A stretch of 64,000 nt of DNA from a virus. Taxonomy: Duplodnaviria > Caudoviricetes. Below, piece after piece: positions 1,154-29,039 of the stretch. A program made the position numbers and the translations under genes. The stretch spans positions 128,001-192,000 of IMG/VR virus record IMGVR_UViG_3300017917_003016. One strand, given 5' to 3'. The notes beneath the pieces are model-generated. The model was given only the letters and a program-made list of their open reading frames with translations. It was not told where the DNA came from and searched no databases. The stretch's first letter is position 1. Each line of letters begins with the position of its first letter.

Positions 1154-1228
1154 CGCGGGATAGTGAAATGGCATCACGGTGGTCTCATAAGCCACAGTTC
1201 CTAGTTCGAATCTAGGTCTCCGCAACCA
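1154..1228 (+). tRNA. tRNA-Met(CAT), initiator-like
   Basis: Cloverleaf, CAT anticodon, C1:A72 mismatch, encoded CCA; one extra base in 3' acceptor strand. Confidence 0.8.
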
Positions 1229-1234
1229 GATTTT

Positions 1235-1309
1235 GCCGCGTTAGCACAGTGGTAGTGCAACGGTTTTGTAAACCGTAGGTCGTCTGTTCGAATCAGACAC
1301 GCGGCACCA
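1235..1309 (+). tRNA. tRNA-Thr(TGT)
   Basis: Cloverleaf, acggt-tt TGT aa-accgt, CCA end. Confidence 0.95.
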
Positions 1310-1316
1310 GATTATT

Positions 1317-1399
1317 GCCCGGGTGGTGGAATTGGTAGACACGCTGGTCTTAGAAGCCAGTGCTTCGGCGTAAGTGTTCGAGTCTCTTCTTGGGCACCA
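1317..1399 (+). tRNA. tRNA-Leu(TAG)
   Basis: Type II cloverleaf with variable arm, TAG anticodon, CCA end. Confidence 0.92.
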
Positions 1400-1406
1400 A
1401 AGTTTT

Positions 1407-1480
1407 GCGGCGTTCGTAAAATGGTATTACCTTAGCCTTCCAAGCTAAAGTCGCGAGTTCGATTCTCGCACGCCGCTCCA
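1407..1480 (+). tRNA. tRNA-Gly(TCC)
   Basis: Cloverleaf, TCC anticodon, U73, CCA end. Confidence 0.95.
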
Positions 1481-1484
1481 AGTT

Positions 1485-1576
1485 TCACATAAGTCAGATG
1501 AAGATGATGCCGTTGAAAGCGTGTGAAGATAGTGGACGATAAAACTTTAATTATAGCAGTACACTGGCTTATGTGA
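1485..1576 (+). ncRNA. Putative stem-loop RNA between tRNA-Gly and tRNA-Ala
   Basis: 13-bp inverted repeat tcacataagtcag (1485-1497) / ctggcttatgtga (1564-1576) with one G-U pair. Confidence 0.4.
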
Positions 1577-1579
1577 TTT

Positions 1580-1655
1580 GGGGGTGTAGCTCAGTTGGGA
1601 GAGCGCCAGCTTTGCAAGCTGGATGTCGCAAGTTCGATCCTTGTCACCTCCACCA
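1580..1655 (+). tRNA. tRNA-Ala(TGC)
   Basis: Cloverleaf, TGC anticodon, G3:U70, CCA end. Confidence 0.95.
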
Positions 1656-1662
1656 AATTTCT

Positions 1663-1738
1663 GCGGGCGTAACTCAGTTGGGAGAGTGCAACCTTGCCAA
1701 GGTTGATGTCGAGAGTTCGAACCTCTTCGCCCGCTCCA
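1663..1738 (+). tRNA. tRNA-Gly(GCC)
   Basis: Cloverleaf, GCC anticodon, CCA end. Confidence 0.95.
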
Positions 1739-1745
1739 TGTTTTT

Positions 1746-1821
1746 GGAAGGTTAGCTCAGTTGGTAGAGCATCGCCCTTACAAGGCGAGGGTCACTGGTT
1801 CGAGCCCAGTACCTTCCACCA
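1746..1821 (+). tRNA. tRNA-Val(TAC)
   Basis: Cloverleaf, TAC anticodon, CCA end. Confidence 0.95.
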
Positions 1822-1830
1822 AACACTACC

Positions 1831-2039
1831 GTGTCCTGACGGTTTATCAGGAGGTTGTGAGTATAGGTTGGCCAAACCTTCCAGAAACTCTCAGGTGCTC
1901 TGTCCACCTTAAGGCTACAGCGTAGACGTAGGCCCTGCGATAACGGCCCGCAGGTGTGATGTTCCTCTAGAGTGAACATACGGACAGGGTAACAACTCAG
2001 TTAGGGGCCATGGTGGTGCAGGTAGCCTAACACTGACAC
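1831..2039 (+). ncRNA. Putative structured non-coding RNA (multi-helix, possible pseudoknot)
   Basis: Several complementary segments in a 210-nt non-coding spacer: 1831-1835/2035-2039, 1836-1839/1847-1850, 1854-1858/1992-1996, 1865-1869/1875-1879, 1898-1905/1982-1989, 1934-1939/1949-1954, 1959-1964/1974-1979, 1912-1918/2022-2028. Confidence 0.55.
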
Positions 2040-2040
2040 T

Positions 2041-2117
2041 TCCCCGATAGCTCAGTTGGTAGTAGCAATGGACTGTTAATCCATGTGTCCCTGGTTCGAG
2101 CCCAGGTCGGGGAGCCA
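2041..2117 (+). tRNA. tRNA-Asn(GTT)
   Basis: Cloverleaf, GTT anticodon, G73, CCA end. Confidence 0.95.
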
Positions 2118-2122
2118 TTATT

Positions 2123-2199
2123 CGGACATTAGCGCAGCCCGGTAGCGCATCTGCTTTGGGAGCAGAGGGTCGTAGGTTCGAATCCTACATGTCCGACCA
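2123..2199 (+). tRNA. tRNA-Pro(TGG)
   Basis: Cloverleaf, TGG anticodon, C1-G72, CCA end. Confidence 0.95.
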
Positions 2200-2224
2200 T
2201 TTTTAATTTAACTAAAGGTAATGT

Positions 2225-2695
2225 ATGCAAAAACTTGACTTTGACGAAGTGCGGACGTTTATTCAGCAGCAAAGCCCAGAAACCAAAATCTACATTGGTG
2301 GCGATAGTCGTAGATTTCGTAAGGACAATACCTGGCATGCTGAATACACCCTTGCTGTTGTAGTTCATATCGATGGCAAGCATGGCTGCAAGATTTTTGG
2401 TGAGTCTTGCATTGAGCGTGATTTTGATCAACGTCGAGACCGCCCTAGCATGCGTCTTATGAATGAAGTCTACAAGATTAGTGAACTTTACCTTAAGTTA
2501 CACGAAGTTTTAGAAGATCGTGATGTTGAAGTACACCTAGATATTAACCCCAATGAAATGTACGGCAGTAGTTGTGTGGTACAACAGGCAGTGGGTTATA
2601 TTCGTGGTGTATGTAATGTTGTACCAATGGTTAAGCCTCGTGCGTTTGCTGCCAGTTACGCCGCAGACAGACTCAAGGAGGTATTGGCAGCATAA
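2225..2695 (+). CDS. RNase H-like protein (YkuK/DUF458-like)
   Basis: IYIGGDS...AVVVH...G...IF, RLMNEV, EVHLDINP, AASYAAD pattern typical of the family. Confidence 0.75.
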   Translation: MQKLDFDEVRTFIQQQSPETKIYIGGDSRRFRKDNTWHAEYTLAVVVHIDGKHGCKIFGESCIERDFDQRRDRPSMRLMNEVYKISELYLKLHEVLEDRDVEVHLDINPNEMYGSSCVVQQAVGYIRGVCNVVPMVKPRAFAASYAADRLKEVLAA

Positions 2696-2703
2696 AAGTT
2701 TAC

Positions 2704-2779
2704 GGGACGGTAGCTCAGTTGGTAGAGCAGCGGACTTTTAATCCGTTGGTCGCGAGTTCGAACCTCGCTCGTCCTACCA
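2704..2779 (+). tRNA. tRNA-Lys(TTT)
   Basis: Cloverleaf, TTT anticodon, CCA end. Confidence 0.95.
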
Positions 2780-2799
2780 ATATTAAAGGAGATCACAAA

Positions 2800-2982
2800 A
2801 TGAAAACGGTGGTTTTTAAAAATCGAAGATCAAATGAAAAATTTGTCTGCGACAACGTCCGTGATGTCCGTGTGATTGAAGGAGTTGAATATCTACAGGT
2901 ACATCGTCCGGACAATCCTAGAAACTTTTTGATGCGTAAAGATGCACTAGAAAGGGTAGAATCATCCCGCTTGCCGCGTTAG
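2800..2982 (+). CDS. Small hypothetical protein (60 aa)
   Basis: AAGGAG RBS then ATG at 2800; upstream part of tracked ORF overlaps tRNA-Lys. Confidence 0.65.
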   Translation: MKTVVFKNRRSNEKFVCDNVRDVRVIEGVEYLQVHRPDNPRNFLMRKDALERVESSRLPR

Positions 2983-3324
2983 GAAGTTGGCTCGCATGCT
3001 CTTTGGTTTGAAATATTCACGCACAACTTCTTTGACAATATCTATGCTGAATTCTTTGCAACTAAAAACGTCTAGATATAGATCGCCGGTTGAATCTATA
3101 AAGTGTGCAACAATACTGGATGTAACTATGATCTGCACAGCAGTGAATCCTGCTTTGTCGGGTTGATCTCCTGCTGTGTATTCTATCCAAGGTGTGCCAA
3201 TTGGCTCCATGTCAATTCTTTGCACTAGTTCTTCGATAAAGTTTTTAACATTCCATTTTTCCATGATCAGTGCACGGTTGCAGTCATGACAGTCTAATGT
3301 TAGATGATAACCCCAAAAACTCAT
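2962..3324 (-). CDS. speD: S-adenosylmethionine decarboxylase proenzyme (pyruvoyl-dependent, class 1b-like)
   Basis: GYHLTLDC, GFTAVQIIVTSSIVAHF, YLDVFSC match the SpeD fold and autocleavage region. Confidence 0.8.
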   Translation of the reverse strand: MSFWGYHLTLDCHDCNRALIMEKWNVKNFIEELVQRIDMEPIGTPWIEYTAGDQPDKAGFTAVQIIVTSSIVAHFIDSTGDLYLDVFSCKEFSIDIVKEVVREYFKPKSMRANFLTRQAG

Positions 3325-3395
3325 TGATGTCTCCTTGACATAGAATTCGTAAGAAAGTATAGTTATTTATTGTGCAGAGCAAAAAGTTAGATATA

Positions 3396-3469
3396 CCCGG
3401 TGTAGTTTAATGGTAGAACCGCAGCCTCCAAATCTGCATGTGGGAGTTCGATTCTCTCCACCGGGCCCA
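3396..3469 (+). tRNA. tRNA-Trp(CCA)
   Basis: Cloverleaf, CCA anticodon, CCA end; atypical C73 and C31:U39. Confidence 0.85.
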
Positions 3470-3474
3470 TTTAT

Positions 3475-3552
3475 GTAGAGGTGGCAGAGTGGCCCAATGC
3501 AAGGGATTGCAAATCCCTAAAACCGTGAGTTCGAATCTCACCCTCTACTCCA
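3475..3552 (+). tRNA. tRNA-Cys(GCA)
   Basis: Cloverleaf, GCA anticodon, U73, CCA end. Confidence 0.93.
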
Positions 3553-4047
3553 TTACCTGCACTGTTCTATTAGATTGGGCACTGCAAACCCTGTACTACC
3601 GTGTTTTTTCAAAAAATTACTCTGTGCGGTATAGGCATGCTGTTCGCTCTTAGCCCAGTGTAGGCAGTCTGGTTCATTTTTAAACAAATTGTTTTTTACC
3701 TGAGCCCAGTGTACTAATTCATGAAATACCACACTGGCAGTGAATAGGTTAATCTGCAGCAATGCTGGACTGATCAGTATCTCACCAGTCTCGTCGTCTG
3801 TGATAGCAGCCACATGACAGTCATGATTGACATCTTTGCAGTAGGCTGCTTCTATGGCCTGCCTGCTGGCTAGATAAACTTTGGGTTGTTCTTTAGGCAA
3901 AGGTAATCTGGTTATTTCAGTTATTTCTGTCATCAAAGGTCTGATCAGATTCTCATACATAATTGGCGGAATTGGAGTCTTAGAAATTTCTTGTGCATGG
4001 CTCCGGGCTGTGACCAGCAGCGCCAGGAGGAATATAATTTTTTTCAT
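3553..4047 (-). CDS. Secreted HExxH (zincin-like) protein, related to 593..1099
   Basis: Signal peptide; VFHELVHWAQ followed by SEQHAY. Confidence 0.6.
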   Translation of the reverse strand: MKKIIFLLALLVTARSHAQEISKTPIPPIMYENLIRPLMTEITEITRLPLPKEQPKVYLASRQAIEAAYCKDVNHDCHVAAITDDETGEILISPALLQINLFTASVVFHELVHWAQVKNNLFKNEPDCLHWAKSEQHAYTAQSNFLKKHGSTGFAVPNLIEQCR

Positions 4048-4078
4048 TTTAATTCCAAGTATCTACATACTTATGCTA

Positions 4079-4155
4079 GCCCCCGTAGCTCAGTGGACCA
4101 GAGCGGTGCGCTTCGAACGCACGGGTCGGGAGTTCGAATCTCTCCGGGGGCTCCA
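4079..4155 (+). tRNA. tRNA-Arg(TCG)
   Basis: Cloverleaf, gtgcg-ct TCG aa-cgcac, CCA end. Confidence 0.93.
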
Positions 4156-4214
4156 AATAAATAACTGTTGACAGCGGTTTAATGTATTTGATTTGATTTT
4201 TCATAAATAAAATT

Positions 4215-4850
4215 ATGCATACTTGTTTATACTGTCAAAAAAATTTTACTAACCTGGGTGGTTTGGGGGCGCATCACCCTTATTGTAAATCTAACCCAGA
4301 AAGAAAACAGCGTACAAAATCTCCCAATGCACATCGTAAAAAAGGTTCAATACCCTGGAACAAAGGGTTATCTATAGAAACTGATCAAAGAATAAAACCA
4401 AGATTAGAACTACAAGGTAAAAGATTTGGTGCTTCGTTAAACGGTCACAGTGAAGAGACTAAGAAAAAACTATCAGAAATCGCCAAAGAACGTAAATTAG
4501 GTGGATATGTAAAAGGCTCCGGAAGAGGTAAAAAAGGCTGGTACAAAGGATTTTTTTGCGACAGTAGTTGGGAACTTGCCTATGTAATTTATTGTTTAGA
4601 ACACGGTATAGATATTAAAAGAAATACAGAAATCAGAGAATACATATGGAAAGGGCAAGTTAAAAAATATATTCCTGATTTTAATGTACAAGGTGTAATA
4701 ACTGAAATTAAGGGTTACAAGACAGAACAATGGCTAGCAAAATTAAAAGCAAATATTGATGTAAAAGTCTTGTATGAAAAAGATTTAGAGTATATAATAG
4801 AGTATGTTAGTAGCAAATACGGTAAAGATTTTGTAAAGTTGTACGAGTAA
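4215..4850 (+). CDS. Free-standing homing-type endonuclease (zinc finger + NUMOD3-like + PD-(D/E)xK domain)
   Basis: CLYC...HHPYC finger, HSEETKKKLS repeat-like motif, DSSWE...YIPDF...EIKGY nuclease motif; CATAAATA at 4202-4209 upstream. Confidence 0.7.
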   Translation: MHTCLYCQKNFTNLGGLGAHHPYCKSNPERKQRTKSPNAHRKKGSIPWNKGLSIETDQRIKPRLELQGKRFGASLNGHSEETKKKLSEIAKERKLGGYVKGSGRGKKGWYKGFFCDSSWELAYVIYCLEHGIDIKRNTEIREYIWKGQVKKYIPDFNVQGVITEIKGYKTEQWLAKLKANIDVKVLYEKDLEYIIEYVSSKYGKDFVKLYE

Positions 4851-4855
4851 TGTTT

Positions 4856-4946
4856 GGAGGGGCAAACCGATTGGTGACGGTACCTGTCTTGAAAACAGTT
4901 GAGCGTTAATAGCGCCTTGGGGGTTCGACTCCGCCTCCCTCCGCCA
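4856..4946 (+). tRNA. tRNA-Ser(TGA)
   Basis: Type II cloverleaf with long variable arm, TGA anticodon, G73, CCA end. Confidence 0.9.
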
Positions 4947-4961
4947 ATTTTATGAGGCTGT

Positions 4962-5582
4962 ATGATTAAACTGCTAGGAAAACTACCGCGAGAAATTTGG
5001 GTAGCCTGCTCAGGTGGTGTCGATAGTCTTGCTGCTGTAGATTTTCTCAAAAACAATCATCGCGTTAGTGTGGTTTTTGTGCATCATGGCACAGAAGCCA
5101 GCGACCAAGGCATGATCAAAGTCTGCGAATATGCAGACACACACGCACTGCCGGTAGTGGTAAAATACATCGATACCCATCGGCCGCGCCAGCAAAGTCA
5201 GGAAGAATACTGGCGTCGAGAACGCTATGAGTTTTTTGATGAATTGCACAACGAATGGCCGTTGGTCACTGCACATCATCTAGATGACTGTGTGGAAACT
5301 TATGTATGGAGTATGTGTCATGGCCGCGGCAAGGTAATTCCCCATCGTCGTGGTCGCGTGATTAGGCCGTTTCTTCTTAACTCTAAACAGGAATTGATTG
5401 ATTGGGCTGAACTGCATGGCCTGTCCTGGCATGATGATGCCAGCAATCACGATATTAAGTATACACGCAATCTTGTACGACACGAAGTACTTCCACAGGT
5501 TCTACGGGTCAACCCCGGCATCGCACAAGTTGTGCGCAGGATTGTTAAAGATAATTTTGATCTTGACAGGCATCAATACTGA
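4962..5582 (+). CDS. tilS: tRNA(Ile)-lysidine synthetase, catalytic domain only
   Basis: SGGVDS PP-loop, RYEFF, TAHHLDD..ET, RPFL, DASN...YTRN..RH motifs. Confidence 0.9.
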   Translation: MIKLLGKLPREIWVACSGGVDSLAAVDFLKNNHRVSVVFVHHGTEASDQGMIKVCEYADTHALPVVVKYIDTHRPRQQSQEEYWRRERYEFFDELHNEWPLVTAHHLDDCVETYVWSMCHGRGKVIPHRRGRVIRPFLLNSKQELIDWAELHGLSWHDDASNHDIKYTRNLVRHEVLPQVLRVNPGIAQVVRRIVKDNFDLDRHQY

Positions 5583-5591
5583 ATATATACT
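5563..5591 (+). promoter_or_regulatory. sigma70-type promoter for tRNA-Ile2
   Basis: TTGACA (5563-5568), 17 nt, TATACT (5586-5591), overlapping tilS 3' end. Confidence 0.7.
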
Positions 5592-5607
5592 ATGTAATGA
5601 AAGTTAC

Positions 5608-5684
<77 letters not shown>

Positions 5685-5704
5685 ATATATTACTAGGTTT
5701 AATC

Positions 5705-5914
5705 ATGATAGAAAAAGAGTTGATTGATCTAATGCTAAGTATTAAGCATGAATTAATTGCTATCAGAACTGATCTAACATTGATTAATCATGATGTAATT
5801 AAAATTAACGAACGTATAGATACGTTGACAACTTTGGCTATGCAACCTCAAGAAAGTATTGGAATCGCTCCAAACACACCGCATCCAAGTTATCTTCCTC
5901 CAGAGGTAATGTAG
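5705..5914 (+). CDS. Hypothetical protein
   Basis: In-frame ATG at 5705 after the tRNA. Confidence 0.5.
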   Translation: MIEKELIDLMLSIKHELIAIRTDLTLINHDVIKINERIDTLTTLAMQPQESIGIAPNTPHPSYLPPEVM

Positions 5915-5947
5915 TCAAAACTTAAATTATTTTATAAGGAAACTAAA

Positions 5948-6277
5948 ATGTTAACAATGCTTTCTGTAGTAGTGGTACTGCTGGTAGCAGGGTATATTAT
6001 TAATACACGACTGCAAAAGTCGCAGACTAAGACCAGCCAACCTACTCCCACTGAACCCGTCAAAGTTACTGTCAGTGAAGAAGTTGTCACAGGGTTGACT
6101 GATCAAAAGATTGATGAAGTTGCTGCGGTAGTCGAGGGTGTTGAAGCAGTAGTGCCAGAAACTAAGGTAGAGGTTGTAGTCGAAACTACTGCCAAGAAGC
6201 CTGCAGCACGTAAGTCTTCAGCACGTAAGCCCGCTGCTAAGAAGGCACCTGCTAAGAAGCCTGCTGCTAAGAAGTAA
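5948..6277 (+). CDS. Membrane-anchored protein with Lys/Ala/Pro-rich histone-like tail
   Basis: N-terminal hydrophobic helix; C-terminal KKPAARK/KKAPAKKPAAKK repeats. Confidence 0.7.
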   Translation: MLTMLSVVVVLLVAGYIINTRLQKSQTKTSQPTPTEPVKVTVSEEVVTGLTDQKIDEVAAVVEGVEAVVPETKVEVVVETTAKKPAARKSSARKPAAKKAPAKKPAAKK

Positions 6278-6286
6278 AGTTTAATT

Positions 6287-6374
6287 GCCCGGGTGGTGAA
6301 ATAGGTAGACACAACGGACTTAAAATCCGTCGCCCTAAACAGGCGTACCGGTTCGATTCCGGTCCCGGGCACCA
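6287..6374 (+). tRNA. tRNA-Leu(TAA)
   Basis: Type II cloverleaf, TAA anticodon, CCA end. Confidence 0.95.
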
Positions 6375-6382
6375 ACAATACT

Positions 6383-6586
6383 ATGGACGTTAATCAACTT
6401 ATTAATCGTGTAAAAAATCTCCAGTACTGGGAAGTGACAATACCAGTACCACCGTTGGTAAAGTTTTCTGGGCGTGTGCCTTTTACTGTAAAAATAGTTG
6501 ATGACCGTGCTGTATGTAAGGTTTTAGCAGTTGACATAGTTGAAGCAGAACGCAGGGTTTTAGAATACTTTAATTCACAAGTTTAA
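6383..6586 (+). CDS. Hypothetical protein
   Basis: Fills gap between two tRNAs. Confidence 0.55.
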   Translation: MDVNQLINRVKNLQYWEVTIPVPPLVKFSGRVPFTVKIVDDRAVCKVLAVDIVEAERRVLEYFNSQV

Positions 6587-6587
6587 A

Positions 6588-6662
6588 CTGCTCGTAGCCT
6601 AATGGAAAGGCAACACTCTTCTAAAGTGTCTTATGGGGGTTCGAGTCCCTCCGGGCAGGCCA
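6588..6662 (+). tRNA. tRNA-Arg(TCT)
   Basis: Cloverleaf, acact-ct TCT aa-agtgt, CCA end. Confidence 0.93.
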
Positions 6663-6668
6663 AGTTAA

Positions 6669-6759
6669 GGAGAGTTGGCCGAGCGGTCGATGGCACCGGT
6701 CTACTAAACCGGCATACAGTTAACCTGTATCCAGGGTTCGAATCCCTGACTCTCCGCCA
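6669..6759 (+). tRNA. tRNA-Ser(ACT), rare A34 anticodon
   Basis: ccggt-ct ACT aa-accgg, long variable arm atacag/ctgtat, G73, CCA end. Confidence 0.85.
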
Positions 6760-19947: not shown

Positions 19948-20538
19948 ATGCCTAATCTAGTACCAATGGTTCTTGAACGCACCAGTCAAGGTGAACGCAG
20001 TTATGATTTGTATTCAAGACTGCTCAAAGACCGCATTGTGATTCTTGACACTGACGTCAACGAACACTCAGCAAGTCTTATTGTTGCTCAATTGCTGTTC
20101 CTTGAAGCAGAAGATGCTGAAAAAGATATTTTGTTCTATATCAACAGTCCAGGGGGTATTATCACTGCTGGTATGAGCATTTATGATACCATGCAGTTTA
20201 TTCGTCCTCAGGTCAGCACCATTGTAATGGGACAGGCCTGCTCAATGGGCAGTTTTCTTGCACAAGCAGGGGCCCCAGGCAAACGTATGATGCTGCCCAA
20301 TGCTCGACACATGATTCACCAACCTAGCGGTGGTGCACGTGGCATGGCTTCAGACATTGAAATTTCCTACAAGGAAATCATGCACTGGAAGCAACGTCTA
20401 ACAGAACTTTATGTAGAGCACAATACCTCAGGTAAAACCTATGAAGATTTTGAGCGGGACATGGATCGTGACACTTTTATGAGTGCACAGGAATCTCTGG
20501 AGTATGGCCTCTGTGACGAAATTATCACTAAACGATAA
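19948..20538 (+). CDS. clpP: ATP-dependent Clp protease proteolytic subunit
   Basis: [28 protein letters not shown] (catalytic Ser), MIHQP (His), RD. Confidence 0.95.
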
Positions 20539-21841
20539 TTTTTGCTCTAGCCCGTGGTTTCATGTCAAAATAAATCCCGGCGGTGACTTTGTTCCTTGCC
20601 GCTGGGACGCCGTCACGCTGACTAGTGATTATAATATTGCAAATACCAGTATCAGCGAATATATAAATTCCTTGCCCATGCAAACTTTACGCATGGATCT
20701 ACTAGAAGGAAAACAAATAAAAATCTGTGATTCATGTAAAAATGAAGATCGGAATCACAAGGTCAGCGGAAGAAGTCGACAACTGCTCAAAAGTGCAATA
20801 GACATAGAAAATTTTAATAAAACTTTTTGTGCCAGTCCGCATTTTGAATGGTTTGACTATTCCTATAGAAATCAAGGTCTGACTAAAAATTTGCCTGTAG
20901 ACCTTCAAATTGATTTGGGCAATGCCTGCAACAGCGGGTGTTTAATGTGCCATCCAATTTATAGTAGTAGGTTGCATACAGATTATCAAAAACTTTACAA
21001 ATCAGATCCAATTGTTTTTGATTACACTACACCAAAACGAAATTGGACCGATGACAAATTTCTAGTGGATAAGTTTGTAGATGAACTATCAACTATTCCA
21101 AATTTGAGATATCTGCATTTACTTGGTGGTGAAACACTTTATCTAGAAAGTTTTTATGCTATATGTGAAAAACTTATCGAAAAAGGGTTGGCTAAAAATA
21201 TAAGCCTAGGCACTACAACAAACTGCACAGTGTATACCCCTAGATTAGAAAAAATACTACAAGAGTTCAAACATGTTCATATTGGTCTGAGTATCGAAGC
21301 ATTTCATCCTCTCAACGATTACATTAGATGGCCTAGCAAATTAGAAGACGTTCAAGAAAATATCAAAAAATTTGTGGCTTTGAGAAACTCCTCAGATCTA
21401 CAGTTGAGTTTGAGAATTACTCCCTGTAATCTCAGTATTGGTCACTTGGATACTGTGTTTGATTTTATGATCAAACATTCTATAATTGCTGAAAGTTGTA
21501 ATCTCTTAGTGAACCCTAGTTTCTTACGAATTGAAATTCTACCGCATAACCTGTTAATGTCCGCTTTAGATAAAATCAATAATGTGATTAAAAAACACAA
21601 GTTGATCCCCAATTATGATGCATATGTCAATAGAAGAAACGAGTCTATTAGAAATGAAATTGTTTCTAAGACTATTTTTGAATACAAAGACCTATTAGAA
21701 AATCTGCAACCAGTTGAAAATCCAAAGCAGGAAAGACTGAATTTGGTTAAATTTTTAAAGGGATTTGAAGAACTTAGAAAAAACTGTATCCTAGACTATC
21801 TGCCAGAATATGAAGAATTTTTACGAAGCCACAATTACTAG
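20483..21841 (+). CDS. Radical SAM protein with N-terminal Cys-rich (SPASM/Twitch-like) domain
   Basis: CNSGCLMC (CxxxCxxC), GGE motif, FVPCRW and CDSC; true start probably downstream of 20483. Confidence 0.8.
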
Positions 21842-24773: not shown

Positions 24774-24813
24774 AATTATGAATTATAAAATTGGTGAATA
24801 TTTACTGACTGCA

Positions 24814-24842
24814 TTGACATACATTGCCATTGCTGTTATAAT
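24814..24842 (+). promoter_or_regulatory. Consensus sigma70 promoter with extended -10, driving ssrA
   Basis: TTGACA (24814-24819), 17 nt ending TGT, TATAAT (24837-24842). Confidence 0.85.
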
Positions 24843-24848
24843 TATTGA

Positions 24849-25350
24849 ACTATTTTTGAAGTAAATAAGAGTATTGCTGTATGAAGTTGATGGAAAGGTG
24901 TTCTGGACGCGGGTTCGACTCCCGCCGACTCCACCAAAAATGCACTGTATGACTGAAGACCAAAGACGTTACGCCTATGAATTGTTTTACCTAGTAAAAG
25001 GCCATGTCAAGTATTTTGACGATGCTGACCTAGAGGCCATAGTCAAAGATTATACTCGGCGTCTGTGGTACAATGAAGAAGCACATTTGTACCGTGAAGG
25101 GTTTGAAGAAGCATATCGTGTGTTTTCGCTGGGGTCGTACAGGTTTCGACAGGGCAAATGAGTACGGATATGGACAGCACGGTAGGCGAAGACCGTAAAT
25201 CTAGCAAAACTTATAGATGCCAACACATCTAAATTTGGTACTGCAAAAGTATCTATGGGCCGCGGCTTCCGCTTCGGTACTCGTAGTGCTGAGGCAGTAG
25301 CAGCCTAAACTCTGCAACCACGGGGTTGGTTAGCCTTGTTACCCAATTAA
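24849..25350 (+). ncRNA. ssrA: Circularly permuted (two-piece) tmRNA gene: acceptor piece about 24849-24936, intervening segment 24937-25130, coding piece from 25131
   Basis: T-arm gcggg-ttcgact-cccgc and cgactcc-A-CCA lie upstream of 5' end ggggtcg-tacaggtttcgac; stem has G3:U70; tag frame 25219-25308 ends AVAA-stop; outer ends approximate. Confidence 0.9.
24940..25161 (+). CDS. 73-aa ORF nested in the tmRNA intervening segment
   Basis: ATG 3 nt after CCA (second ATG at 24949); open through IVS; stop lies inside the tmRNA coding piece. Confidence 0.55.
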   Translation: MHCMTEDQRRYAYELFYLVKGHVKYFDDADLEAIVKDYTRRLWYNEEAHLYREGFEEAYRVFSLGSYRFRQGK

Positions 25351-25352
25351 CC

Positions 25353-25377
25353 AAAGCCCACTTCGGTGGGCTTTTTT
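25353..25377 (+). terminator. Intrinsic terminator of ssrA
   Basis: aaagcccac-ttcg-gtgggc-tttttt. Confidence 0.9.
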
Positions 25378-25421
25378 ATCTTGATTATAGACAAAATAAA
25401 TATCTAAAAGGATGAGAAAGC

Positions 25422-25931: not shown

Positions 25932-26519
25932 ATGCAACCTCTAGAAAAGATCTATACCGATATGAACTATGCTGCTGAAATTCGCCAGTCTCTAGATTTC
26001 AATCGTTATGCTAAACTGATTCAAGCATTGGGCAATTCACTCAATGACCGCAAGAGCCGCTTTGACAAAAGCGACATCATCGAACAAAGCATTGAAACCT
26101 ATAGCAATGGTCGGTTCAAGTGGGTTGACGATATTGGTCGTGACCATGTTGACACTGAAACAGGCCATGATCTAGAGTTCAAATATGCGCAGAGCAGTCT
26201 TTACAATCACAAGGGCAAGCCCAAGGCCACAGTCAAGGTCAAGATTAAAAACAGCCTAGGTGAACACAAGGGTACTAATATTGACAATCCTGCAGACTAC
26301 TATGTGATTGGCCAGCAAGATGCTATGGCTGTGATTTCCTATGAACAGTTGAAACCTTACTTGGTTGCAGTGCCCGACGGCATCGAAGCACATATTCCTT
26401 TTGAACAACTGTCGGTGATTTTTGCACCCAGCGATGTCAAAAACTCCTCTGCCCAGTGCCAGGTAGATTATCTCAAATTCAAGCGCGAGGCACAGCGCCG
26501 CCTTATTGAGAGTGTATAA
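25932..26519 (+). CDS. Hypothetical protein, possible PD-(D/E)xK nuclease fold
   Basis: GRD...DLEFK pattern; weak. Confidence 0.4.
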   Translation: MQPLEKIYTDMNYAAEIRQSLDFNRYAKLIQALGNSLNDRKSRFDKSDIIEQSIETYSNGRFKWVDDIGRDHVDTETGHDLEFKYAQSSLYNHKGKPKATVKVKIKNSLGEHKGTNIDNPADYYVIGQQDAMAVISYEQLKPYLVAVPDGIEAHIPFEQLSVIFAPSDVKNSSAQCQVDYLKFKREAQRRLIESV

Positions 26520-26520
26520 A

Positions 26521-27015
26521 ATGGATGATCAGCAACTAAATGAGATTCTGGTAATCGACAGAGAGACTCTAATGTCAGTGGTGCCAAAAATTAATAATCG
26601 CCCGTTGAATATTGGAGACTATGATAAAATTTGGCGTTTAAATTTTAGATGGCACGATGTAGTCCAGGGGTTGAACAACAGACTGTCAAACTGCAAAAAA
26701 CGTGCTAAAAATATGAATTTTGATGTTGACCTTGATCTGGGTTATCTTTCAAATCTTTGGTTAGATCAACAGGGTAGATGCGTAATTACAGACAAGATTA
26801 TGAGTTTCACTAGCGGTTCTTTGTATGATAAAAATCCCCTGGCCTGTTCCATTGATAGAATTGACAACGACCATGGATATATTCGAGGTAATGTGCGATT
26901 ATTGACGCATTGGGCCAACAATGCTAAAAGTACCTGGGATCATGACATCTTTGAATCAATGATTGCCAGTAGTGCACGTAAATTGCAACTTGTTGAGCAT
27001 AACCAAAAAGTTTGA
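26521..27015 (+). CDS. HNH/His-Me finger endonuclease-like protein
   Basis: SIDRIDNDHGY..GNVRL....AN..K motif. Confidence 0.65.
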   Translation: MDDQQLNEILVIDRETLMSVVPKINNRPLNIGDYDKIWRLNFRWHDVVQGLNNRLSNCKKRAKNMNFDVDLDLGYLSNLWLDQQGRCVITDKIMSFTSGSLYDKNPLACSIDRIDNDHGYIRGNVRLLTHWANNAKSTWDHDIFESMIASSARKLQLVEHNQKV

Positions 27016-27105
27016 CATAAATAATTCTGCTATGTATCATAGCAGTTTCGTGCCTAGATCAGGGCGGAACGAAAATTTTATTTGCTTACTAAAAGGAGTA
27101 AAACA

Positions 27106-29039
<1,934 letters not shown>

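Follow-up and report, generated by a model that had tools for sequence, protein, structure and literature searches.

A permuted phage tmRNA gene of apparent betaproteobacterial type with a conserved protein gene between its two halves

A two-piece ssrA gene for transfer-messenger RNA (tmRNA) has been described in the OM43 phage Melnitz (PMC9004378, 2022). In the same study, 402 tmRNA-bearing isolate phages yielded 133 unique tmRNA structures, of which 53 are two-piece, 50 of these 53 coming from aquatic phages, and permuted tmRNAs were present in 17 of 47 Melnitz-like contigs. A tmRNA database published in 2025 holds 79 bacteriophage tmRNAs (PMC11915505). The DNA treated here is a stretch of 64,000 nucleotides (nt), referred to as the window, which corresponds to positions 128,001–192,000 of the IMG/VR virus record IMGVR_UViG_3300017917_003016; all coordinates are on the window scale unless stated otherwise. 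It carries a permuted tmRNA gene whose intervening segment contains a conserved protein gene. A preceding interpretation of this DNA without database searches (the sequence-only reading) recognized the permuted gene and regarded the known phage tmRNAs as one-piece, a view that is outdated given the two-piece phage forms in PMC9004378.

The locus is very probably a functional two-piece tmRNA gene of betaproteobacterial type (beta type), the precursor of which would also be the messenger for the protein encoded between the two halves. ARAGORN calls a permuted tmRNA at 24844–25399 on the + strand, with its parts in the order of a two-piece tmRNA, namely the 3′ tRNA-like half, the intervening segment, the 5′ half and the tag frame. 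The Rfam model RF04321 (tmRNA_permuted) matches with 119.2 bits (threshold 47, E 1e-22) over positions 1–213 of 213. Both checks were proposed in the sequence-only reading and support its identification, and the promoter, 3′ half, encoded CCA, 194-nt spacer, 5′ half, tag frame and terminator that it described have all been recovered in place. The parts of the locus, including two open reading frames (ORFs) besides the tag frame, are as follows.

24778–24864, + strand: hydrophobic mini-ORF of 28 codons (MNYKIGEYLL...), enclosing the promoter hexamers
24814–24842, + strand: predicted sigma-70-type promoter, TTGACA, 17 nt, TATAAT, with TG before the −10 hexamer (consensus scan, 12 of 12 positions)
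24875–24880, + strand: leader strand UGCUGU of the outer linking helix, partner 25174–25179 (structure lines of RF04321 and RF01850)
24898–24936, + strand: 3′ tRNA-like half (ARAGORN, Rfam and covariation)
24899–24905, + strand: inner linking strand TGTTCTG, pairing with CAGGGCA at 25150–25156 (structure lines of both Rfam alignments)
24909–24913 and 24921–24925, + strand: T stem, GCGGG and CCCGC, with the T loop TTCGACT (ARAGORN)
24926–24932, + strand: acceptor 3′ strand CGACTCC, then the discriminator A24933 and the encoded CCA at 24934–24936
24937–25130, + strand: intervening segment of 194 nt, predicted to be removed on maturation
24937–24945 and 25118–25126, + strand: 9-bp stem closing the intervening segment, which prolongs the acceptor stem in the predicted fold of the precursor
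24949–25161, + strand: nested protein gene, 70 codons and TGA, the last 10 codons and the stop lying inside the 5′ tRNA-like half
25131–25157, + strand: 5′ tRNA-like half, with the acceptor 5′ strand GGGGTCG at 25131–25137 and the inner linking strand at 25150–25156
25174–25179, + strand: outer linking strand ACAGCA, followed by the hairpin CGGU...ACCG at 25180–25195 (RF01850 alignment; kept in relatives)
25219–25308, + strand: tag reading frame with resume codon GCC at 25219, 29 residues (ANTSKFG...AEAVAA) and the stop TAA
25353–25380, + strand: intrinsic terminator with a 9-bp stem (25353–25374) and a T run (consensus scan), 3′ end of the coding piece

The acceptor stem consists of 7 bp formed by GGGGTCG with CGACTCC, and in the bracket output of ARAGORN G25133:U24930 corresponds to the G3:U70 alanine identity pair. 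Related loci, designated by L numbers, include 76 IMG/VR loci obtained from relatives of a flanking 425-amino-acid (aa) gene and 44 IMG/VR loci obtained with a degenerate 5′-half pattern. Of the 120 fetched loci, 53 contain a tmRNA gene according to ARAGORN, 51 of these genes being permuted. Permuted tmRNAs account for 40 of the 44 matches of the 5′-half pattern in IMG/VR, and they are found at the corresponding place beside relatives of the 425-aa gene. A set of 30 distinct viral tRNA-like domains shows canonical pairing in all of the 210 cells of the split acceptor stem, with an invariant G3:U70 (30/30) and with compensatory changes at acceptor pairs 4 to 6 (GC/CG at pair 4, GC/AT/CG/TA at pair 5 and TA/GC/CG/AT at pair 6). 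The T stem co-varies as well and is canonical in 150 of 150 cells. The proposed 7-bp acceptor stem with G3:U70 is borne out by these data, and the proposed pairings between the two pieces, agggca with tgttct and acagca with tgctgt, are helices in the Rfam structure lines.

The order of the halves in the window, together with the 194-nt intervening segment and the GGGGTCG/CGACTCC stem, recurs in three loci from different samples, L077 (IMG/VR), L130 (Logan) and L141 (ENA). The stem closing the intervening segment persists within the coding sequence of the nested gene and is maintained by two-sided changes among these four copies, one pair being U-G, C-G or U-A and the next G-U, A-U or G-C. Since the same layout is present in independent assemblies, the halves have not been placed out of order by an assembly error, a risk raised in the sequence-only reading, and misassembly and chance are excluded. 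An artefact or relic in the wider sense, whether by misassembly, host contamination or decay into a pseudogene, could be suspected because the record is a metagenomic assembly and because the relative L131 is degenerate. However, the identical order and segment length in the three other assemblies, the prevalence of permuted genes among the fetched loci, the intact and co-varying hallmark pairs and the phage genes that border the tmRNA locus on both sides make this extremely improbable.

Judged from its alignments, the tmRNA is of the betaproteobacterial type. RF01850 (beta_tmRNA) matches over model positions 1–331 with 86.2 bits (threshold 84, E 1.5e-24), and it is the top model of clan CL00001 (tRNA/tmRNA) in a permissive rescan, in which four weaker clan matches were suppressed. 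An independent permutation, one of the two origins considered in the sequence-only reading, is unlikely because the leader, both linking helices, the next hairpin and the terminal hairpin align with the beta-type model, the gene being aligned end to end. The hairpin of the terminator, which aligns with the terminal hairpin of RF01850, is common to L132, L137 and L140. The other origin considered, in which the phage carries the gene from one lineage to another, is conceivable but finds no support here. Exact-pattern scans of 185,579 bacterial species genomes with two phage-type patterns, one of the leader and the 3′ half and the other of the 5′ half and the linking helix, gave no match, and the phage clade is a sublineage of its own within the beta type. 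A close cultured relative was not found either, as blastn against 50,697 phage records gave only about 70 nt in the T-arm region of Stenotrophomonas phage tmRNAs, with 80% identity.

The leader motif TATTGCTGTATGAAG is kept throughout the phage clade. It was also considered as a general repeated phage element and rejected as such, the window having one exact copy and near-matches at chance level. Between the tag stop and the terminator, a possible H-type pseudoknot can be read by eye, with GGGU at 25323–25326 facing ACCC at 25341–25344 and UGGUUA at 25327–25332 facing UAACCA at 25348–25353. The consensus promoter of the sequence-only reading stands as far as its hexamers are concerned, all 12 positions being matched, but it sits inside the 28-codon mini-ORF. 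A counterpart of this mini-ORF is conserved as a peptide in L130 and is missing from the closest relative, L141, in which the upstream gene abuts the tmRNA leader. The mini-ORF looks like a small inserted cassette carrying its own promoter.

The 194-nt segment, taken for a spacer in the sequence-only reading, is actually taken up by a conserved protein-coding gene. The stop codon of the nested gene (25159–25161) lies beyond the predicted ribonuclease P (RNase P) site at 25130/25131, and the ATG at 24940, an alternative start, is not conserved. The four nested copies stem from independent assemblies and all keep the frame open, and L077 has the same frame with mostly synonymous differences. A search of 5.8 billion proteins gave 18 homologues of 64–86 aa, the alignment of which has 28 invariant columns. 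Over a 50-codon core, with all compared copies nested, the proportions of synonymous (pS) and nonsynonymous (pN) differences are 0.66 and 0.11 between the window and L077, with 7/6/20 differences at the three codon positions, and 0.77 and 0.11 between the window and L130, with 8/5/22 differences. These values point to strong purifying selection on the nested gene, which is the sole copy in the record. RNA structure was considered as the cause of the conservation of the segment and rejected, as the precursor fold is no stabler than those of shuffled sequences (z −0.76) and the substitutions are mostly at third codon positions.

An AlphaFold2 (AF2) model of the nested protein has four helices, with a predicted local distance difference test score (pLDDT) of 82, and the protein is mildly acidic, with an isoelectric point (pI) of 6.1. 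It has no Pfam match at E ≤ 0.01, ArfA included, and no PHROG match, and a feature search of the ESM Atlas gave no usable match. Fold searches with the AF2 model against PDB, AFDB clusters and the Atlas returned only an unnamed 71-aa homologue.

Other permuted tmRNA genes of viruses also carry genes in this position. The intervening segment ranges from 6 to 273 nt among 33 distinct viral permuted tmRNA genes, and in five of the 33 it contains ORFs that exceed about 97% of shuffles in length. The segment of L144, a 338-kb contig, encodes a membrane protein of 83 aa, the gene of which has the Shine-Dalgarno sequence AAGGAG and a stop of its own; 34 homologues are found elsewhere between nrdA and nrdB. 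That of L105 encodes a member of a 52-protein family found elsewhere beside 2-oxoglutarate (2OG)-Fe(II) oxygenases, and that of L117 has a candidate 54-codon ORF. The ORFs of L105 and L117 also run into the 5′ half. Comparison of these segments indicates that the slot has been filled independently by unrelated genes. These observations would fit a permissive, highly transcribed slot in which small phage genes land at random, the nested gene of the window being a passenger. Such an account is a possible one, although less probable than a precursor with a messenger role, with which it overlaps rather than being in contradiction. Against a random landing, every close homologue with enough flanking sequence sits beside or inside a tmRNA gene, pointing to local capture and possibly to a functional link; as a caveat, the more distant homologues L124–129 have no nearby tmRNA.

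A different kind of intervening segment is seen in L090 (1084–1625). It is 237 nt long, has no ORF, and contains a partial second T arm and acceptor end (TTCGAATCC-type loop, then CTCCACCA). ARAGORN calls no tRNA in it, and in this gene the 3′ half is duplicated internally.

The nested gene and its relatives are found in three gene orders. In the first order (L121, L132–135 and L137–140), a 68-aa gene is followed by a 64-aa gene with its own stop and then directly by the tmRNA leader, and the intervening segment is short (7 nt in L132). The 68-aa gene is conserved before the free-standing 64-aa gene, with its stop abutting the start (TAA-ATG; L132 4794–5000, L130 1560–1766, L137, L138 and L140 are listed). 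In the second order (the window, L077, L130 and L141), the gene is preceded by the 3′ half and enclosed by the two halves, and it has lost its basic tail and its own stop. In the third order, seen in L131, a short ENA contig (1–610), degenerate copies of the leader and the 3′ half lie on both sides of the gene and there is no intact tmRNA; L131 is possibly an intermediate or a relic of the nesting rearrangement. In L122/L123 (2998–3264), a remnant of the 64-aa gene without its start and C-terminal third is fused in frame to the tmRNA leader, and the 64-aa gene is decaying in this lineage. The GGGGTCG/CGACTCC acceptor stem is present in all four nested copies and, within the surveyed list of tRNA-like domains, only in the window and L077. 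A single origin of the nested copies is therefore argued from their common acceptor stem. The simplest account that we infer is a local rearrangement in the lineage of the window, L077, L130 and L141, probably via duplicated copies of the leader and the 3′ half, that put the acceptor half upstream of the gene. The leader and the 3′ half would have been duplicated across the neighbour gene, and the downstream copy would then have been lost.

These features lead to a plausible model for the expression of the locus. A single transcript of about 530 nt would extend from the promoter at 24814–24842 to the terminator at 25353–25380. The tRNA-like halves would fold together through the 7-bp acceptor stem, the T arm and the two linking helices, the acceptor stem being lengthened by the 9-bp closing stem. 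Host RNase P would cleave before G25131, and host 3′-end enzymes would trim the RNA to the encoded CCA at 24936, giving an acceptor piece of about 62–88 nt that would be held by base pairs to a coding piece of about 245 nt. Host alanyl-tRNA synthetase would charge the RNA via G3:U70, and host SmpB and EF-Tu would bring it to stalled ribosomes, where translation would resume at GCC 25219 and add the 29-residue basic tag ending in AVAA. The full-length nested protein would be made only before the RNase P cut. Since the gene lies in the excised segment and its stop lies past the cut, the precursor would be both the messenger and the tmRNA precursor.

The position of the stop codon raises the possibility of a closer coupling between processing and translation. 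In Escherichia coli, arfA gives rise to a non-stop mRNA by endonuclease cleavage inside its ORF. The nested gene resembles arfA in that a cut upstream of its stop would give a non-stop message subject to tmRNA, and differs from it in that there is no likeness in sequence or fold and the putative cut would be made by RNase P in tmRNA maturation. The nested gene could thus act as a processing-coupled, ArfA-like sensor, in which the RNase P cut makes the nested message non-stop and the product is tagged and destroyed, accumulating when trans-translation is saturated. The stop lies 28–33 nt past the RNase P site in all four nested copies, as TGA or TAG in the linking-helix region, and the cut falls just after the conserved core of the protein. 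This core is followed by a tail of the form S-L/M-G-S-Y/H-R-F-R-Q-G, the full C-terminal tail in the window being LGSYRFRQGK. The constant linkage of the gene to tmRNA among close homologues and the entry of the L105 and L117 ORFs into the 5′ half agree with such a sensor. However, the orthologues upstream of tmRNA keep their own stops and undergo no such cut, the gene nested in L144 comes with a Shine-Dalgarno sequence and a stop of its own, and the nested protein is structured and mildly acidic, with no relation to ArfA in Pfam. In addition, reading into the 5′ half is an expected by-product of a deletion that removes the tail. A sensor of this kind is therefore improbable. We give the same low weight to the self-referential circuit that it would entail, in which RNase P maturation strips the stop from the sole gene copy and the yield or fate of the protein reports processing against trans-translation capacity.

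The tag frame ends, like its start, in alignment with the RF04321 consensus, and its C-terminus consists of a hydrophobic residue and Ala-Ala (AVAA). Compared with the nearest tmRNAs, the frame has about 57 extra nt in frame, and the tag has a net charge of about +4. The nearest tmRNAs (L137, L122 and, as far as its sequence reaches, L141) have ordinary acidic tags of 10–14 residues, for example ANDDVYAEDFALAA. The tag of the window resembles instead the 28-residue tags of L107, L115, L142, L143 and L144, and none of 2000 shuffles scores as well. The differences among these tags are conservative (R/K, F/V/L and T/S), with the common ending EAV-x-A. The long tags of 28–29 residues are strongly basic, with a pI of about 11, and the tRNA-like domains of their carriers differ. 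Since the tags are alike and the tRNA-like domains are not, the messenger-like part seems to have been exchanged between phage tmRNA genes. The long basic tag may give tagged proteins a fate other than the usual degradation.

The absence of smpB from the window, reported in the sequence-only reading, extends to the whole 201.7-kb record, neither having a PF01668 match. Five further phage records with a tmRNA, three of them 97–100% complete, likewise gave no SmpB. Since no SmpB is found in the record, the phage tmRNA would have to rely on host SmpB. The lack of smpB in the phage is usual for phage tmRNAs and does not count against membership in this class. By analogy, the tRNA-like domain could be a decoy that titrates host SmpB and thereby inhibits host trans-translation, the tag frame being irrelevant. 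The missing phage SmpB and the atypical tag would agree with a decoy, and a precedent has been proposed for an RNA of mycobacteriophage DS6A consisting only of the tRNA-like domain, according to the passages of PMC4131195 and PMC11915505 that cite it. Nevertheless, the tag frame is intact, starts with Ala-Asn and ends with AVAA and a stop, its peptide is conserved with L107, L142 and L144, and the context of the resume codon and the linking helices are conserved. A decoy is accordingly a rather remote explanation, and a tmRNA that works in tagging, with a precursor that also serves as messenger, is preferred.

Several points weigh against this preferred reading. The RF01850 score exceeds its threshold by only 2 bits. 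No Shine-Dalgarno sequence is found at the nested gene, the start of which adjoins the closing stem and is preceded by an A-rich leader. The free-standing copies are also without a Shine-Dalgarno sequence and start at TAA-ATG after the 68-aa gene, which was not found in the record of the window. With neither a Shine-Dalgarno sequence nor the 68-aa gene to which translation would be coupled elsewhere, the nested gene has no evident mode of translation start. The RNase P cut would strip the nested gene of its stop codon. The tag is atypical in being long and basic and in lacking the usual ANDxxYALAA body, and the fate of tagged proteins is uncertain. Finally, the estimated completeness of the record is 56%, and smpB may therefore lie elsewhere in the genome.

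The carrier of the locus is a large uncultured myovirus-like phage, represented by a 201.7-kb IMG/VR virus record. Its large terminase shares 54% identity with the terminases of PA5oct-like Pseudomonas jumbo phages, and the next best matches are Sinorhizobium phage Phosso and Agrobacterium phage Atu_ph07. The terminase supports a phage origin, and the proposal of a viral, complete two-piece tmRNA gene that is apparently functional is upheld. Further genes of the record are listed below.

1155–6759, + strand: 18 tRNA genes, including two for tRNA-Met and one for tRNA-Ser with the unusual anticodon ACT (ARAGORN)
20483–21841: radical SAM/SPASM protein
26506–27015: HNH/endonuclease VII-like protein
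27082–29039: GroES and GroEL, GroEL being 69% identical to enterobacterial GroL
G000:C1:119537–120184, about 8 kb before the window: CsgG curli-pore gene (171 bits)

Clues to the host are limited to the beta-type tmRNA and to the similarity of GroEL to enterobacterial GroL.

A part of permuted tmRNA genes that has always been taken as expendable can serve as a messenger for proteins under selection, and a stable-RNA precursor would double as an mRNA. The gene upstream of the tmRNA, the intermediate with duplicated halves and the nested gene form an evolutionary series that bears on how permuted RNA genes rearrange. For annotation, gene callers and tmRNA finders each catch half of the locus. 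The locus also makes it possible to test how RNase P processing is linked to non-stop messages and trans-translation in phage infection, and the recurrent long basic tag raises the question of tagging for a purpose other than proteolysis.

Among the described systems, Melnitz, pelagimyophages and some cyanophages (PMC9004378) share with this phage a permuted ssrA gene in a large lytic-type phage with tRNA genes, an early-type promoter and no reported smpB, and the CsgG gene of the record is likewise reported in Melnitz and pelagimyophages. Unlike the ssrA gene of Melnitz, which is of the alphaproteobacterial type and has a glutamine riboswitch at its 3′ domain (PMC9004378), the gene in the window is of the beta type and has no riboswitch match. 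The window also differs from Melnitz in the protein gene within the intervening segment, in the long basic tag and in a terminase nearest to those of PA5oct-, Atu_ph07- and Phosso-like jumbo phages. The end-to-end alignment with the betaproteobacterial two-piece tmRNA (RF01850; Sharkady and Williams 2004, as cited in PMC9004378) covers the order of the parts, the leader, both linking helices with the hairpin that follows, and the terminal hairpin, whereas the intervening segment has 194 nt compared with about 30 in the model, and the tag 29 residues compared with about 10.

Inserts in tmRNA genes are described in PMC11915505, in which one intervening sequence contains a tRNA-Ala gene and another a repetitive element, and 4% of T-loop group I introns carry homing endonuclease genes. 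The insert in the window differs from these in being a selected small protein gene and not a mobile-element gene, and that paper mentions no ordinary protein gene within the intervening sequence of a permuted gene. No account of a protein gene in the intervening segment of a permuted tmRNA was found in the searchable literature. A parallel in another stable RNA is the intervening sequence of Coxiella burnetii 23S rRNA with the S23p ORF, which is also an ORF in a stem-closed segment cut from a stable-RNA precursor, as described in the relevant part of PMC4990558. There, the RNA and the nuclease are different, and that part of the source calls the element selfish and suggests that the protein is not made, whereas the ORF in the window is strongly selected and is the sole copy. 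The two-piece tmRNA of the phage itself thus adds a member to a published class, and what is new here is a selected protein gene in the excised segment, with its stop past the processing site, together with a long basic tag.

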